From: Fidelibacterota bacterium | Lineage (GTDB): Bacteria; Fidelibacterota; SORT01 | Assembly (NCBI GenBank): GCA_022571215.1 | Contig: JACZYG010000002.1 | Location: 54,332 to 118,331, forward strand | DNA: 64,000 nucleotides | Direction of reading: 5' to 3' | Part shown: positions 3,178 through 14,485 of the stretch, in pieces | Numbering within the stretch: the first letter of the stretch is position 1 | Layout: the number at the start of each line of letters is the position of its first letter | Made by a program: the position numbers and the translations under genes | Notes under the pieces: generated by a model | Told to the model about the DNA's origin: nothing | Seen by the model: the letters and a program-made list of their open reading frames with translations, nothing else | Databases searched by the model: none

Positions 3178-3905
3178 CCTAAAATCCCCGCAACGATAAA
3201 TAGATCATAAAAACTGTGAGTATACGCTGTAACTCCAAAACCTCTAAAAACGTAGAGAACGGACAGTATAGTTCCTCCTATGAACCGAAAAACAAAAGTG
3301 CTGACGAGAAACGGCTCACCAAGGAATCCTATGTAGTGGAAACCGGAAAATATCAAAGAGGAAAGAAAAATAGAGATTATTACGGATGTAATCTTTTTCA
3401 ATCCGACAACTTTGGTGAAAATGAGTACGAAAAGAGATATCAGCACGACCCTGAATAAAAATTCCTCGTAAACGCCTGCGCCCAATGATAAAACGAGTTG
3501 GTGTTTCCAGCTGAAAGTGGGAGGAAATTGAAGCAAAATACTTGTTATCCTGCTTACTACAAAGCCGAACAGAAATGCGTAAAGAATAGATTCACCGAGC
3601 ATCAGCAGAAGATAGCGATATTGCAGAATAAACTCTTTATCCCTCAATTCATGAATGAAAAGTCCGATAAGAATAGCGAGAACCAGTATGCTGAATCCAT
3701 AGAAGCCTGCGACACCAAATATATTGAATATCTGTTTCGTGACAACGTCAGCTCCGTTTCGAAGGCCTTCAATATCCGACTTATTCATTACGAAAGCCGC
3801 TATCTCGTAAGTCATCATAAGAGGAACAACGAACAAGAACGAATAAAAAGGCGATTTTGTAGCCCTTGAGTATTCTTTATATTGTTCCCAGTAATTTTGC
3901 ATCAT
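3174..3905 (-). CDS. CPBP family intramembrane metalloprotease (CAAX protease-like)
   Basis: 243 aa polytopic membrane protein with EEFLFR (EExxxR) and FSGFHY (FxxxH) motifs. Confidence 0.75.
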   Translation of the reverse strand: MMQNYWEQYKEYSRATKSPFYSFLFVVPLMMTYEIAAFVMNKSDIEGLRNGADVVTKQIFNIFGVAGFYGFSILVLAILIGLFIHELRDKEFILQYRYLLLMLGESILYAFLFGFVVSRITSILLQFPPTFSWKHQLVLSLGAGVYEEFLFRVVLISLFVLIFTKVVGLKKITSVIISIFLSSLIFSGFHYIGFLGEPFLVSTFVFRFIGGTILSVLYVFRGFGVTAYTHSFYDLFIVAGILG

Positions 3906-3930
3906 CGAATCATATTAAAATTTTCTGAAA

Positions 3931-5730
3931 TTACTCATCCAACTGCAATACCGCAATGAACGCTTCTTGAGGAACCTGCACACTGCCGACCAATTTCATA
4001 CGTTTTTTCCCCGCTTTTTGTTTTTCTAACAGCTTCCGCTTACGGGTTATATCGCCGCCGTAACATTTGGCTGTAACATTTTTTCTGAGCGCGCTCACGG
4101 TCTGACGCGCGATAATCTTGCTTCCGACAGAACCTTGCAAGGCTATCGGGAACATCTGTCGAGGAATAATCGTTTTAAGTTTTTCGGTTATTCTTCTGCC
4201 CCAGTCGTATGCTTTATCCTTGTGGACGATAATCGAAAAGGCGTCAATTTTATCTCCGTTGATTAAAATATCAAGCCGGACGAGTTTGCCTTTCCGATAC
4301 CCTATATAATCATAATCGAGTGAAGCGTAACCTCTGCTGACAGATTTAAGACGGTCATAAAAATCAAACAGCACTTCCATTAGAGGTAACTCGTAAACGA
4401 TTTCAACCCGATTGGAATTGAGATAGTCGGTGGATTTGTAAGTGCCTCTCTTATCCTGAGCGAGTTTCATAATAGCGCCGATATATTCTGAGGGAGTTAC
4501 AATTGCCGCCCTGATGAACGGCTCTTTAATATTTTCTATATCGCCCGCTGGTGGGAGTTTTACGGGATTATCTATTTCAAAGGACGTACCGTTATGCAAC
4601 TCCACAAGATATTTGGCATTCGGAACGGTCGCGATGATATCCATATCGAATTCACGGGACAATCGTTCCTGAACTATCTCCATGTGGAGCATCCCGAGGT
4701 ATCCGCACCTAAAGCCGAACCCGAGAGCTTCGGATGATTCAGGCTCAAAAGAGATAGCCGCGTCATTGAGCTGTAATTTTTCTAAAGCAATCCTTAATTT
4801 GCTATAATCTTCGTTGTCAATCGGAAAAATACCGCTGAATACCATCGGCTTGGACTCTTTGTAACCGGGAAGAGCTTCTTTTGCCGGATTATCTGCGGAA
4901 GTAACAGTATCTCCGACTTTAGTATCCTTCACATTCTTTACTCCTGCGATCAGATAGCCGACATCACCCGCATTAAGTTCCTTTTTCTTTATCCTTTTCA
5001 TCCGCAGTATGCCGATCTCGAGCGCCTCAAGGGTTTTGTTGTTATTGAAGAACTTTACACGCTGTCCTTCGACTAACTTACCATCAAAGACTCGTATATA
5101 AGCAATAGCTCCGCGGTATTTATCAAATGTTGAATCGAATATTATCGCTCTAAGCGGTTTAGAGGTATCTGATTCTGGAGGGGGAACCAACTCTACTACG
5201 GCTTCAAGAATTTCAGCGACACCTTCACCGGTTTTAGCGCTGATAAGAAATATATCCTCTTCTTTGCAACCGAGCAATTCGATGATCTGGTCAATGGCAA
5301 CTTCAACCTCTTTAGCGCCCAAATCAATTTTGTTGATGATAGGTATGATTTTCAGTCCGCCGTCAACAGCCAGGTAGGCATTACTGACGGTTTGCGCCTC
5401 AACTCCCTGCGCGGCATCCACAAGAAGAAGCGCTCCCTCGCAAGCTGCGAGGCTGCGGCTGACTTCATACGAAAAATCTACATGACCCGGGGTATCTATA
5501 AGGTTGAAGATATATTTTTTGCCGTCATCGGCGCTGTAATCCATAGTTATAGCATGCGCTTTTATCGTAATGCCGCGTTCTCTTTCGATATCCATGTCAT
5601 CAAGCACCTGATCCTTCATCTCTTTTTCGCTCAAGGTATGGGTCAGCTCGAGAAAGCGGTCGGCAAGTGTCGATTTGCCATGATCGATATGGGCTATAAT
5701 GCAGAAATTTCGTATGTTTTCAGCCTTCAT
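3931..5730 (-). CDS. lepA: Elongation factor 4 (LepA)
   Basis: 599 aa; translational GTPase G-domain AHIDHGKSTL, DTPGHVDF, NKID, with LepA-specific C-terminal domain. Confidence 0.95.
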   Translation of the reverse strand: MKAENIRNFCIIAHIDHGKSTLADRFLELTHTLSEKEMKDQVLDDMDIERERGITIKAHAITMDYSADDGKKYIFNLIDTPGHVDFSYEVSRSLAACEGALLLVDAAQGVEAQTVSNAYLAVDGGLKIIPIINKIDLGAKEVEVAIDQIIELLGCKEEDIFLISAKTGEGVAEILEAVVELVPPPESDTSKPLRAIIFDSTFDKYRGAIAYIRVFDGKLVEGQRVKFFNNNKTLEALEIGILRMKRIKKKELNAGDVGYLIAGVKNVKDTKVGDTVTSADNPAKEALPGYKESKPMVFSGIFPIDNEDYSKLRIALEKLQLNDAAISFEPESSEALGFGFRCGYLGMLHMEIVQERLSREFDMDIIATVPNAKYLVELHNGTSFEIDNPVKLPPAGDIENIKEPFIRAAIVTPSEYIGAIMKLAQDKRGTYKSTDYLNSNRVEIVYELPLMEVLFDFYDRLKSVSRGYASLDYDYIGYRKGKLVRLDILINGDKIDAFSIIVHKDKAYDWGRRITEKLKTIIPRQMFPIALQGSVGSKIIARQTVSALRKNVTAKCYGGDITRKRKLLEKQKAGKKRMKLVGSVQVPQEAFIAVLQLDE

Positions 5731-11164: not shown

Positions 11165-12568
11165 ATGATGAAAACTCGAATTGAAAAAGATTCTATGGGT
11201 GAAATGAGAGTACCCGAAAATTCTTATTACGGAGCGCAAACTCAGCGCGCGGTGGAGAATTTTCCTATCAGCGGAATAGGTTTTTCACGGCGGTTCATTC
11301 AAGCGCTCGGAATGCTGAAAAGAGCGGCGGCGAAAGTAAACGGCGAACTCGGATTGCTCGATGCCGACAGGAAAAAGGCTATCGTCAAGGCGGCGACCGA
11401 AGTAGTTGACGGAAAGTTTGACGATCAGTTCGTTATTGACATCTTTCAGACCGGTTCAGGCACCTCGACCAATATGAACGCGAACGAAGTGATAGGAAAC
11501 AGGGCGAGCGAACTAATGGGCGGCGCTCTCGGTTCGAGGGAGCCTGTGCACCCGAACGACCATGTGAATATGTGCCAGTCATCGAACGATGTGATCCCGT
11601 CCGCTATTCATCTCGCCGCGTATACAGCTATTTATGAGGACTTGATTCCCGCGCTCGAACAACTCGAAAAGTCGTTCGCGAACAAAGCGAAGAAATTCGA
11701 TAAGATACTGAAAATAGGCAGAACCCATCTTCAGGACGCGACTCCCGTACGGCTCGGGCAGGAGTTCGGCGGTTACGCCTCTCAGGTGAGTCACGCCATA
11801 AACCGAATCAAGAACGCCTCTAACGATTTGCTTGAGCTCGCTATCGGCGGCACTGCCGTCGGCACGGGCATTAACGCTCATCCCGATTTCGGCAGAAAAG
11901 TGGCGATGAAGATCTCCCTCGACACAGGCGCGAAATTCATCGAAGCGAAAAACCATTTTGAAGCGCAAGGCTCGAAAGACGCTGTCGTCAATATCTCAGG
12001 AGTTCTTAAGTCAACCGCCGTAGGCATCTCGAAAGCGGCGAACGATATCAGGCTCATGGGAGCGGGACCGCGAACAAGCATAGGCGAAATCAATCTGCCG
12101 GCGGTAGCGCCCGGCTCATCCATTATGCCGGGAAAGGTGAATCCCGTGATGGTGGAGATGGTGATGCAGGTGACCGCTCAGATCATAGGCAACGATGCGA
12201 CGATCACGAACGCGGGGCAGGGCGGACTTCTCGAACTCAACGTCATGATGCCGGTGATGGCTCATAATCTGCTGCAATCGGTTGAGTTGCTTTCTACCGC
12301 GTCGGCGACATTCGCGACCAGATGCGTGGACGGAATTGAGGTCAACAAGGAACGCGCGGCTGAACTCGTGGAGCAGAGCCTCGCTAACGCGACACCTCTT
12401 GCGCCTCTGATCGGCTACGACAAAGCGGCTAAGATCAGCAAAGAGGCGTTCAAAAAGGGTAAGACTATCCGTCAGATACTGAAGAGCAAAAAAATCCTTT
12501 CCGACGACAAGATAAACAAAGTTTTAAATCTAATGAAACTCACAAAACCGGGTATCAGTAAGAGGTGA
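11165..12568 (+). CDS. Fumarase C / aspartate ammonia-lyase family lyase (class II fumarate hydratase or aspartase)
   Basis: GSSIMPGKVNP signature, NMCQSSND, GRTHLQDATP. The following NPVMVEMV residues look more aspartase-like, so the assignment is ambiguous. Start moved to the ATG at 11165 (MMKTRIEKDSMGE) preceded by a GAGAGG Shine-Dalgarno; the longer ORF from 11111 overlaps the PfpI gene. Confidence 0.85.
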   Translation: MMKTRIEKDSMGEMRVPENSYYGAQTQRAVENFPISGIGFSRRFIQALGMLKRAAAKVNGELGLLDADRKKAIVKAATEVVDGKFDDQFVIDIFQTGSGTSTNMNANEVIGNRASELMGGALGSREPVHPNDHVNMCQSSNDVIPSAIHLAAYTAIYEDLIPALEQLEKSFANKAKKFDKILKIGRTHLQDATPVRLGQEFGGYASQVSHAINRIKNASNDLLELAIGGTAVGTGINAHPDFGRKVAMKISLDTGAKFIEAKNHFEAQGSKDAVVNISGVLKSTAVGISKAANDIRLMGAGPRTSIGEINLPAVAPGSSIMPGKVNPVMVEMVMQVTAQIIGNDATITNAGQGGLLELNVMMPVMAHNLLQSVELLSTASATFATRCVDGIEVNKERAAELVEQSLANATPLAPLIGYDKAAKISKEAFKKGKTIRQILKSKKILSDDKINKVLNLMKLTKPGISKR

Positions 12569-12628
12569 CTGTAGTTAGGATTAAGGCTTATCCTGACTGC
12601 CACAGTAACTGGATTTAGGGATGATTAA

Positions 12629-13336
12629 ATGAATATTATTTCAAAGAAAAGACTCTCAGCTTATTCTATATTAATGATAATACTCTTAGTAATTATAGGT
12701 ATCGCAATAGTAGGATTATGGGTGATGGGGTCGAGGGCTGAAAGCATTGTTGTTGGTTCGGTAGGACTGTATTTTTGGGCTATTAAATTCATTATGAGTG
12801 AGCATTTCAAGAAGATTGACCGAAAAGTTGTTCGGCAACACCAAATACTTCTTCAGGGCATCAAAGCTGGCTACGATTTCAAACAAACGGTTATGCAAAA
12901 TATGTATACAATCACTAATGAACTTTGGAAACGTTCAATTTGGATTGCAATGAACTGGAATAGCCTCTGGCCTGGAATGGATGGTGATTTAGAATTACGG
13001 AAGGAGTTCGACGCCAATTTTGAAGAGTATTACAAATTTAGGAGCAGCAATTCGATCAATATTCCTTCACACATTTTTACAGCTGCAGGTAAACTAATTG
13101 AAGGGATCGACACATATAAAAACGGTAGGATGGTCAAAAGCGATAAATCTTTTGATGCAGAAACGCGGAGAGAAGGTCATAAGAATATGTCTAGTGGTAC
13201 CCGATTAATCAAATCTTCCATGAAAGACTTATTTCGTGCAATCCGCGAGGAATTTGGTTTAGAACGGTTGCCCGGCGATGTGCTCAATATTCCAGTTCCA
13301 GAAGAGTCTCAAAGTAAGACTGAAGATCCAGAATAA
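12629..13336 (+). CDS. Hypothetical protein with two N-terminal transmembrane helices and a ~170 aa soluble domain of unknown family
   Basis: 235 aa; hydrophobic segments AYSILMIILLVIIGIAIVGLWVMG and IVVGSVGLYFWAIKFIM; the rest matches no family I recognise; AT-rich codon usage. Confidence 0.55.
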   Translation: MNIISKKRLSAYSILMIILLVIIGIAIVGLWVMGSRAESIVVGSVGLYFWAIKFIMSEHFKKIDRKVVRQHQILLQGIKAGYDFKQTVMQNMYTITNELWKRSIWIAMNWNSLWPGMDGDLELRKEFDANFEEYYKFRSSNSINIPSHIFTAAGKLIEGIDTYKNGRMVKSDKSFDAETRREGHKNMSSGTRLIKSSMKDLFRAIREEFGLERLPGDVLNIPVPEESQSKTEDPE

Positions 13337-13381
13337 ACCAATTCCTAAGATGGGTTTTGTTCAAAAATAACGAGGAGAGAT

Positions 13382-14221
13382 ATGTTGTATCATATTAGAA
13401 TATCTCAAAAATCAAATAAGAAAAGAGGCGAAGTGAAGGTTGATTTAACAGAAGAGCAGCTTAAAGATCGTTATGTAAAGCTCTATGAAGAAGGTATGCC
13501 TTTATTTATCAACGGTAAAACTATTCCAATTGATGATATTGAGAGAATCGAGATTAGCAGAAGTGACTTAGCGTCTAAGGATCTCATCAACCATATTAAA
13601 GCTGAAGATGCTCAAAGTAGTTTTGTGTTTTTAGGCGGACCATCGTATGAATGGAGTGCAGCCGATAGAGCTGAAGATGTAACTGAAGAATACATTACAG
13701 GACCTCCCGGATCTAAAAGAATTACTAATCCAACTGAAGAGATTATCCAAACATCAATGCTAAAATCAGAAAAAAAGGTGTTTGTTGTTCATGGACATGA
13801 TCAGGAATTAAAGAATGATGTTGAAGTATTTCTGAAAAACATTGGACTCGAACCAATTGTATTGCACAGAGAGGTCGATGAAGGATTAACCCTTATAGAA
13901 AAATTTGAGCGCCACTCCGATGTAGGATATGCGTTGATTTTAATAACACCGGATGATGAAGCGTTCCCAAAAAGTGAATTAAAAAAATCTGAGAACAAAC
14001 TTAAAATTGAATTACGAGCAAGACAAAATGTGATTTTTGAATGGGGTTACTTCGTTGGAAAGATTGGTCGTTCAAACGTATGTTGTGTGTATAAAGAGGG
14101 TGTTACACTTCCATCAGATATGGCAGGATTAGTTTATAAAAAAGTAACTAAGACTATTGAAGAGATCGGTTATGAATTAATTAAAGAATTAAACAACGCT
14201 GGATTCAAGTTAGAGATTTAA
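13382..14221 (+). CDS. Protein with C-terminal TIR-like Rossmannoid domain (COG4271/PF10137-type) and N-terminal domain of unknown function
   Basis: 279 aa; C-terminal region has KKVFVVHGHD, ALILITPDDEAF and RARQNVIFEWGYFVGKIGRSNVCCV, matching the pattern I recall for the bacterial TIR-like domain found in defence effectors. GGAG-type Shine-Dalgarno 45 bp after the upstream gene; AT-rich. Confidence 0.6.
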   Translation: MLYHIRISQKSNKKRGEVKVDLTEEQLKDRYVKLYEEGMPLFINGKTIPIDDIERIEISRSDLASKDLINHIKAEDAQSSFVFLGGPSYEWSAADRAEDVTEEYITGPPGSKRITNPTEEIIQTSMLKSEKKVFVVHGHDQELKNDVEVFLKNIGLEPIVLHREVDEGLTLIEKFERHSDVGYALILITPDDEAFPKSELKKSENKLKIELRARQNVIFEWGYFVGKIGRSNVCCVYKEGVTLPSDMAGLVYKKVTKTIEEIGYELIKELNNAGFKLEI

Positions 14222-14485
14222 CTGCGATTTTATAATTATTTGTTACTATTGATTTTGTGCATACAAAAAAATATGATTTCTTGATGTAGTAGCAACCGAT
14301 TATCTTATTTTAATACTTTGACTTTCTCTCCTAAATCGAATTGCAAATACCCATATCACAACTCCATAAACAGAAATTCCCATAATTTCCCTTGCCAATT
14401 AGATGGAGCCTAAGTATATTCAATTAAGACAAAAGTTGTCGTAATTAGATAAGTCAGATAATAACACTGACTTAAATGAACTGTA

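Follow-up and report, generated by a model that had tools for sequence, protein, structure and literature searches.

In SpbK of Bacillus subtilis ICEBs1, the N-terminal domain binds to the portal of the phage, a dodecamer, and the TIR domains, locally concentrated in this way, join head to tail and form an active NADase (PMC12847820). TIRs of the PF10137 clade form filaments when they are unrestrained and are then active NADases (bioRxiv 10.64898/2026.04.30.722052). The N-terminal domains of abortive infection (Abi) proteins, AbiJ-NTD1 to NTD5 and AbiTii, are small alpha+beta domains that are interchangeable on toxins (Anantharaman et al. 2013; PMC3710099). Their partners are HEPN domains (AbiJ, Ymh, DUF4145), restriction endonucleases (REases), TIRs and others, often in restriction-modification (R-M) operons, and a role in recognising viral proteins or nucleic acids has been suggested for these N-terminal domains (PMC3710099). 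Here we analysed a TIR protein of 279 amino acid residues (aa) that is encoded in a stretch of 64,000 nucleotides of a Fidelibacterota bacterium (contig JACZYG010000002.1, positions 54,332 to 118,331 of the forward strand); this whole stretch is called the window. We lean, with little more than even confidence, towards the view that the protein is a single-polypeptide abortive-infection effector consisting of a trigger sensor, a tether and a TIR, where the sensor controls the clustering and the NADase activity of the TIR. The parts of the gene are the following.

13382..14221, plus strand: open reading frame of the TIR protein, 279 aa, N-terminus MLYHIRISQKSNKKRGEVKV, the same as in an earlier note on this DNA
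13382..13717, plus strand: N-terminal alpha/beta domain (N-domain), aa 1-112, modelled by AlphaFold2 (AF2) with a predicted local distance difference test (pLDDT) score of 87.4; predicted trigger-recognition or regulatory module
13718..13774, plus strand: flexible linker, aa 113-131, of low pLDDT and low identity
13775..14221, plus strand: TIR of the Cap12/Pycsar type, aa 132-279, stop codon included; PF10137, predicted NAD+ hydrolase effector
14039..14041, plus strand: codon of Glu220 in the motif NVIFEWG, the predicted catalytic glutamate; codon position read from the sequence

The Shine-Dalgarno core GGAG was read from the sequence 4 nt 5' of the ATG. The sole Pfam domain of the protein is PF10137 (CAP12-PCTIR_TIR) at aa 132-256 (E 1.7e-35), with a score of 122.1 bits against the gathering cut-off of 24.7. 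Matches in the PDB to Cap12 and PycTIR structures covered the TIR catalytic motif. Glu220 was invariant among 50 homologues and aligned with the motif NVVFEFG of the solved Cap12 chains 9lmq and 7un8. The PADLOC models for the CBASS TIR effector and for PycTIR also matched the protein, whereas its NCBIfam Cap12 score reached 37 bits against a cut-off of 450. Judged from its sequence, the TIR is a member of the Cap12/Pycsar clade with an intact catalytic motif, and NADase activity is predicted.

The earlier note, which was made from the DNA letters, had marked 13382-13774 as an N-terminal domain. These positions encode residues 1-131 and comprise both the folded domain (1 to about 112) and the flexible linker (113-131). 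The structure prediction that the note had recommended was carried out with AF2 on an alignment of the N-terminal region of 40 homologues (alignment A1) and returned a confident alpha/beta domain, with a pLDDT of 87.4 and a predicted template modelling (pTM) score of 0.76 for the isolated domain. Along the chain, the elements are the strands b1 (2-9) and b2 (16-22), the helix a1 (24-36), the strands b3 (41-43), b4 (46-48) and b5 (53-61) and the helices a2 (65-78) and a3 (89-96); a short turn comes next, at 101-104. The full-length AF2 model had identical N-domain elements, a pLDDT below 50 for aa 116-127 and a pTM of 0.54, which suggests that the two domains fold independently and have no fixed mutual orientation. 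Among 114 full-length homologues, the N-domain (aa 1-112) has a mean pairwise identity of 0.52 and the TIR one of 0.645, as compared to 0.18 for the linker (aa 113-131).

When 134 representatives of the superfamily were compared, the most conserved N-domain residues were G45 (99%), H4 (96%), T101 (95%), P34 (93%) and G38 (91%). Further conserved positions were D21 and Y35 (89% each), D99 (88%) and D102 (84%), followed by R6 and E17 (81% each), R55 (78%) and W91 (76%). From the strand periodicity, H4/R6, E17/K19/D21 and R55/R57 probably lie on one face of the sheet. Conservation in more than 100 full-length homologues, the confident AF2 models and the retrieval of 803 representatives with a profile (see below) confirm that the N-terminal region is a real, discrete and well-folded domain beyond chance.

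The N-domain was then compared with known families and folds. No match to aa 1-131 was found in Pfam, NCBIfam or PHROG, in agreement with the earlier note, which saw no assignable motif in aa 1-130; the PADLOC model PDLC05007 (PDC-S35), however, does cover this region. Two N-domain alignments, used as profiles against all PDB sequences, found no match at E <0.1. Foldseek gave no match under E=1 among 350,542 PDB chains and nothing at E<=1e-3 among viral models. The Pfam and PDB searches revealed no resemblance of the N-domain to STING, SAVED, CARF, cNMP or SLOG domains, either in sequence or in fold. Since the PDB libraries contain the STING-TIR, Cap12 and PycTIR chains, the sensors that are known alongside PF10137 TIRs are excluded; the expectation that the region is not a cNMP-binding, SAVED or STING domain was thereby borne out in Pfam, NCBIfam and the PDB sequence and structure searches. 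Single scans of 56 diverse N-domains against Pfam at E<=10 gave scattered weak matches only. The sole recurrent one was Fumerase_C, found with 6 of the 56 (best E 0.0023), and aa 14-65 of the N-domain profile aligned to residues 420-472 of a class I fumarase with an E of 0.54. A kinship to Fumerase_C was not adopted, as the structure searches gave it no support. A beta-grasp-like topology, hinted at by two weak Ubiquitin_5 matches and the strand order bb-a-bbb, was unsupported as well.

The distribution of the N-domain was examined with a profile search of 1.84 billion representative proteins, which gave 803 representatives at E<=1e-3, of which 368 reached E<=1e-10. The proteins are 74 to 584 aa long and carry the domain usually at the N-terminus and sometimes internally; matches of 112-125 aa are candidate stand-alone N-domain proteins. 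For a census of the partner domains, Pfam was run on 99 N-domain proteins of at least 200 aa (alignment A3). The partner was a PF10137 TIR in 48 of the 99, a TIR_2 domain in 9, a DpnII/MboI-type REase in 4 and a Ymh HEPN domain in another 4. Single cases were PNP_UDP_1, DUF4145 (HEPN), AbiJ_NTD4, DUF2321/zinc ribbon, DUF7379/alpha-beta hydrolase and a ThsB-type TIR, and in about one quarter to one third of the proteins the partner had no Pfam match. According to PADLOC, the partner domains resemble effectors of pAgo-associated, Thoeris, PD-Lambda-3, SpbK and SEFIR systems. The domain-swapping signature that the earlier note had proposed to look for is present, with the N-domain preceding TIR, REase, HEPN, nucleoside phosphorylase (PNP), hydrolase and other partners. 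By this sequence census the N-domain is an autonomous module ahead of at least 10 unrelated toxic effector domains. Its loci were found in Bacteroidota, Pseudomonas, Aerophobetes, Cloacimonadota, Dehalococcoidia, Methanosarcina and Bathyarchaeota, and the protein with an N-domain followed by AbiJ_NTD4 (P0133) comes from Moorella. Carriage by phages or plasmids is rare; the cases are a plasmid of Acinetobacter (6.7 kb) and a 'phage' record of 4.6 kb that is unverified.

Some of the N-domain proteins had a different layout. Seven of the 99 matched a second candidate family, PDC-S66, with a best E of 1.3e-63, and the N-domain may be a module that links the two separately catalogued candidates PDC-S35 and PDC-S66. 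Four proteins (P0205, P0214, P0167 and P0219) have in common an N-terminal extension of about 210-240 aa without a Pfam match before an internal N-domain, so that their layout is three-part with extension, N-domain and effector. In three proteins of 172-205 aa from Bathyarchaeia and metagenomes, the N-domain is intact and unrelated sequence begins soon after the start of the TIR (P0002, P0003) or soon after the N-domain (P0004); these may be frameshifted pseudogenes or sequencing errors. An apparent fusion to an AAA+ domain (P0119, 296 aa) was not accepted as a domain swap. Its first part has about 90% identity to aa 1-155 of the window protein, the rest is CDC48/FtsH-like AAA+ sequence, and since the start of the TIR (VVHG...) is present before the switch and the contig in the ENA is short (1447 bp), it is probably an assembly chimera.

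As a whole, the protein is not new and belongs by its sequence matches to the widespread, catalogued candidate family PDC-S35. The PDLC05007 model spans aa 1-278, which correspond to the profile positions 1-273 of 278 (E 3.7e-69), and it also matches the N-terminal 131 residues by themselves (E 5e-6). The TIR half was matched by four more PDC-S35 models of PADLOC. Novelty is confined to the N-domain, which is not assignable to a known family, whereas the protein family is already listed in PADLOC. The database record of the identical protein reads 'nucleotide-binding protein [Candidatus Marinimicrobia bacterium]'. A search with the whole protein gave 2,674 clusters at 90% identity, and nearly all of the 120 matches listed had the same architecture of about 275-285 aa with 50-83% identity; those listed came from Bacteroidota, Aerophobetes, Margulisiibacteriota and Gammaproteobacteria. 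The genes on which the PDC models were built lie within BREX, DISARM or type I R-M systems; the PDC systems are defence candidates. PADLOC handles PDC-S35 as a single-gene system, and PDC-S35 is a candidate anti-phage family with a predicted activity. No mention of PDC-S35 by name was found in the literature searched, and searches on PF10137, COG4271 and the combinations of partner domains found no description of the N-domain. A single-chain abortive-infection effector made of a sensor and a TIR is a known kind; its sensor domain is undescribed as far as these tools show.

We infer a sensor role of the N-domain from the architecture, because the module is swapped among toxic effectors and is tethered to the TIR. 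The earlier note had argued that the N-terminal domain is the sensor in known TIR effectors. This does not hold in general, since the order is reversed in Cap12 TIR-STING, where the TIR is N-terminal and the sensor is C-terminal. In the mode of action that we propose, the N-domain would recognise an infection trigger. The binding of a multivalent or oligomeric target, or a ligand-induced self-association, would gather the tethered TIRs head to tail, and this assembly would complete the composite NADase sites and lead to NAD+ depletion. The loss of NAD+ would then halt phage replication at the cost of the cell. In other proteins the N-domain would play this part for REase, HEPN, nucleoside-phosphorylase and hydrolase effectors.

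Several points weigh against this proposal. The evidence for the sensor role is architectural throughout, and the anti-phage role of the PDC-S35 family is itself predicted, the PDC systems being catalogue candidates. In the AF2 model of the full-length protein, the placement of the two domains relative to each other was not confident. The window copy has no adjoining defence gene, and its sole companion is an orphan membrane open reading frame (described below). Moreover, the N-domain is highly conserved, with 52% mean pairwise identity and H4 in 96% of the representatives, which is not the usual pattern for a domain that senses fast-evolving phage proteins directly; a small-molecule ligand or a host partner would fit it as well. 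The conserved polar set is the main feature that a simple sensor of a phage protein explains poorly.

The polar set H4, R6, E17, D21, R55, D99, T101 and D102 argues for a conserved target or ligand. Such conservation points to targets such as a core phage component, a nucleic acid or an infection-induced state of the host rather than to a fast-evolving phage protein. Possibly, though we put this forward tentatively and would rather doubt it, the N-domain is a new pattern-recognition fold of Bacteria and Archaea that couples one conserved cue to at least 10 interchangeable suicide effectors. The candidate cues would then be a core component of the virion or of replication, a nucleic-acid feature or inactivated N6-methyltransferase R-M/BREX complexes.

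The surroundings of the homologues were inspected in other genomes. In Methanosarcina (L010) the homologue follows brxC and a gene for a PglX-like methylase of 1,159 aa and precedes a Schlafen/AlbA_2 gene. In Dehalococcoidia (L012) it lies between HsdM-HsdS and HsdR, and in Cloacimonadota (L011) it comes after a homologous PglX-like gene. A fusion of the N-domain to a PNP (L028) abuts an Eco57I/MmeI-type methylase of 1,196 aa, and in Aequorivita (L004) an HsdM gene is found 3.3 kb from the homologue. On L017 (6749-7970) the PDC-S35 member P0009 is immediately downstream of a DUF5343 and HEPN_Swt1 pair, which is the PADLOC candidate PDC-M34A/B, so that two candidates stand side by side. At other loci the neighbours are transposases or integrases, genes of toxin-antitoxin systems or ordinary housekeeping genes; one homologue (L030) is near toxin-antitoxin-type genes of the MqsA-Panacea kind. 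Embedding in BREX, DISARM or type I R-M systems, on which the PDC definition is based, was found for L010 (BREX) and L012 (type I R-M), and the window copy is not embedded. A homologue with 34% identity is encoded at 3501-4373 of the non-mobilisable 6.7-kb plasmid pAhaemAN59a of Acinetobacter haemolyticus (L020), where it adjoins an MqsA-family antitoxin and a SecB-like chaperone, resembling a toxin-antitoxin-chaperone module.

In an all-against-all comparison of 14 genome loci and 22 flanking open reading frames, no conserved neighbour was found outside close relatives, and a conserved partner gene of the family was rejected after this comparison across taxa. The defence context of the homologues that had been supposed was borne out by the PDC-S35 match and by the BREX, type I R-M, Eco57I-type methylase and PDC-M34 neighbours. 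These contexts indicate that the gene travels as a single-gene, mobile unit within defence surroundings.

The methylase neighbours bear on an alternative in which the protein is a guard similar to PrrC. The N-domain would dock on an R-M or BREX complex with an N6-adenine methyltransferase and the effector would be silent, until a phage anti-restriction protein disables the complex and frees the effector. A PrrC-type model for HEPN effectors that are embedded in R-M systems has been laid out (PMC3710099). The origin of the PDC models from genes embedded in BREX, DISARM and type I R-M is in line with a guard, and so are the five methylase-adjacent loci (L010, L012, L011, L028 and L004), whose partners all carry an N6_Mtase domain. 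However, most of the loci examined have no R-M or BREX system nearby (the window, L001, L015, L017, L029-L032 and the Pseudomonas loci). No long methylase-like frame was seen in the list of non-overlapping open reading frames of the 64-kb window, which were not scanned for families, and according to Payne et al. embedded systems mostly occur non-embedded too. We therefore consider the guard unlikely.

The same loci were inspected for genes that could make a signal. If the N-domain were an orphan second-messenger receptor, it would bind a nucleotide that another system makes in trans, in the way that Cap12 and PycTIR rely on STING, SAVED and cNMP domains. The set of partners (TIR, REase, PNP, hydrolase and HEPN) is like that of the receptor effectors of CBASS and type III CRISPR, and the conserved polar constellation would suit a small conserved ligand. 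On the other hand, the N-domain is unlike STING, SAVED, CARF, cNMP and SLOG domains in sequence or fold, and PADLOC treats the family as a single-gene system. No CD-NTase or cyclase was found in the loci with per-gene Pfam annotation, none of these genes, pyrimidine cyclases included, was evident in the window, and no CD-NTase, cyclase, TIR synthase or other signal-making neighbour was conserved in about 25 loci. The absence of a signal-making neighbour disfavours a second-messenger receptor, which we regard as quite improbable. Thus, of the possible ligand or phage sensor suggested in the earlier note, the swappable module in a defence context stood, whereas the second-messenger receptor lost ground.

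The region around the gene in the window has two further features.

12567..14369, no strand assigned: low-GC, strain-variable cassette of two genes, about 1.8 kb, between fumC and a DUF309-suf operon
12629..13336, plus strand: upstream orphan open reading frame, 235 aa, with an N-terminal transmembrane helix and without a family

The cassette has a GC content of 0.31-0.385 as compared to 0.45-0.55 in the flanks, which are fumC on one side and the DUF309-sufCBD operon on the other. The slot was compared in metagenomic contigs that encode the identical DUF309 protein. Three of the contigs bear the same cassette as the window. Another contig (L025) is about 99% identical to the window on both sides of the slot (up to 12566 and from 14370), and its slot (387-1516) holds a different insert of 1.13 kb with an open reading frame of 323 aa that matched neither Pfam nor PADLOC and may be another defence candidate. 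A further contig (L024), from a sister strain and likewise about 99% identical across the DUF309-suf flank, matches the window from 14358 onward and has a GajB-like (Gabija) UvrD helicase gene immediately upstream (L024 1-1137, PADLOC E 3e-22); it ends inside this gene, so the comparison covers the right-hand junction and not the fumC side. Since the contents of L024 and L025 differ from the window in the same slot, the cassette can be delimited to about 12567-14369 and lies in a strain-variable defence hotspot. Nothing convincing was found for flanking repeats or att-like sites of the cassette.

The upstream open reading frame gave no match in Pfam, PADLOC, NCBIfam or PHROG. Its hydrophobic segment is at about aa 7-38, as seen with 19-residue windows starting at 7-20. 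Only 3 homologues were detected among 5.8 billion proteins, all in the same lineage, and the frame was therefore rejected as a general partner; it may encode a partner confined to this lineage or be cargo without a link to the TIR gene. On L019 a 67%-identical copy lies just upstream of an 83%-identical TIR gene, and by these values the upstream frame evolves faster than the TIR gene.

The upstream frame is of importance for a different reading of the N-domain, namely as a constitutive module for auto-inhibition or oligomerisation that senses nothing. Control would then come from the orphan membrane protein, as an antitoxin or partner, or from the expression level. The co-inheritance of the 235-aa frame with the TIR gene in the window lineage would agree with this, as would the toxin-antitoxin-type genes near the copy on the Acinetobacter plasmid (MqsA/SecB) and near L030 (MqsA-Panacea). 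However, the upstream frame is limited to a narrow lineage and the family has no conserved neighbour. Further, an invariant set of His, Asp and Thr residues across ten effector classes of Bacteria and Archaea is unexpected for a structural part, and we give a non-sensing module little credence. That the protein is a non-immune housekeeping enzyme for nucleotide binding or NAD processing, as the database name 'nucleotide-binding protein' and the central-metabolism genes flanking the window copy might suggest, is very improbable, considering that the low-GC cassette is absent or replaced in contigs with about 99% identical flanks, that the family is patchy across phyla and reaches a small plasmid, that homologues are embedded in BREX and R-M and adjoin transposases, that REase and HEPN toxins carry the N-domain too, and that conserved synteny with metabolic genes across genera is absent.

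We return to the protein as a sensor-bearing TIR effector. Very few single-chain TIR NADases with a built-in sensor have been characterised, SpbK among them, and it is the sensor domain that sets what such a protein detects. The N-domain is found in 803 representative clusters of many bacterial phyla and archaea, is combined with most of the common types of defence effectors and has neither a Pfam entry nor a solved structural relative. Identification of its trigger would allow hundreds of protein families to be annotated together and would test whether a conserved sensor can respond to a conserved phage feature or a signal of host integrity without a second messenger. Once the trigger is found, the N-domain proteins would be a compact, portable sensor-effector scaffold. 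The annotation 'nucleotide-binding protein' can be replaced by a specific, testable prediction. If the N-domain is indeed a pattern-recognition fold, it would be a new sensor superfamily with a reach comparable to SAVED or CARF and without a signalling partner. In principle the family is not surprising; it is well delimited, widespread and experimentally tractable.

How the protein relates to the known systems can be summarised as follows. It was not assigned to Thoeris, as no ThsA-type effector gene or ThsA-like neighbour is found beside the TIR gene in the window and the 279-aa protein gave no PADLOC Thoeris match. With PrrC it shares that some of its homologues lie within type I R-M or BREX operons, but it has neither an ABC-ATPase nor an anticodon-nuclease domain and most copies are not embedded. 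To PDC-S35 it is related by an end-to-end match of the hidden Markov model and by homologues embedded in BREX and type I R-M; PDC-S35 is a catalogue entry without a described domain anatomy or mechanism, and the anatomy is predicted here.

Conceptually, the N-domain belongs to the class of the Abi N-terminal domains, since it is likewise found on multiple unrelated toxin domains in defence contexts. It gave no match to the Pfam families AbiJ_NTD3, NTD4 and NTD5, and the Moorella protein, which carries the N-domain and a separate AbiJ_NTD4, shows the two to be distinct modules. Its partner list overlaps that of AbiJ-NTD1 in Ymh, DUF4145 and REase. The comparison with NTD1 is by published description only, in which NTD1 has about 140 aa and is 'mostly alpha helical' (Table 2, PMC3710099), in contrast to about 112 aa and five strands here; the text of the same paper, unlike this entry of its table, describes all the NTDs as alpha+beta.

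With Cap12 and PycTIR the protein shares the PF10137 TIR family and the catalytic glutamate of NVxFExG. In those systems a non-TIR domain governs the oligomerisation-dependent NADase activity. The sensor domain encoded in the window is unrelated to STING, SAVED and cNMP-binding domains, and no adjoining CD-NTase or pyrimidine cyclase was found. With SpbK it shares the single polypeptide (266 aa for SpbK and 279 aa here) and the order of the parts, in which a small N-terminal domain is followed by a flexible linker (18 residues in SpbK and about 19 here) and a C-terminal TIR (PMC12847820). The SpbK N-terminal domain is a 4-helix bundle, whereas the AF2 model here is a five-stranded alpha/beta domain, and the window protein has no PADLOC spbK match and a TIR of the PF10137 family. 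By analogy, SpbK is the best precedent for the proposed mode of action. In conclusion, although the protein is a member of none of the three, it is most like SpbK in its proposed action and like Cap12 and PycTIR in the family of its TIR.

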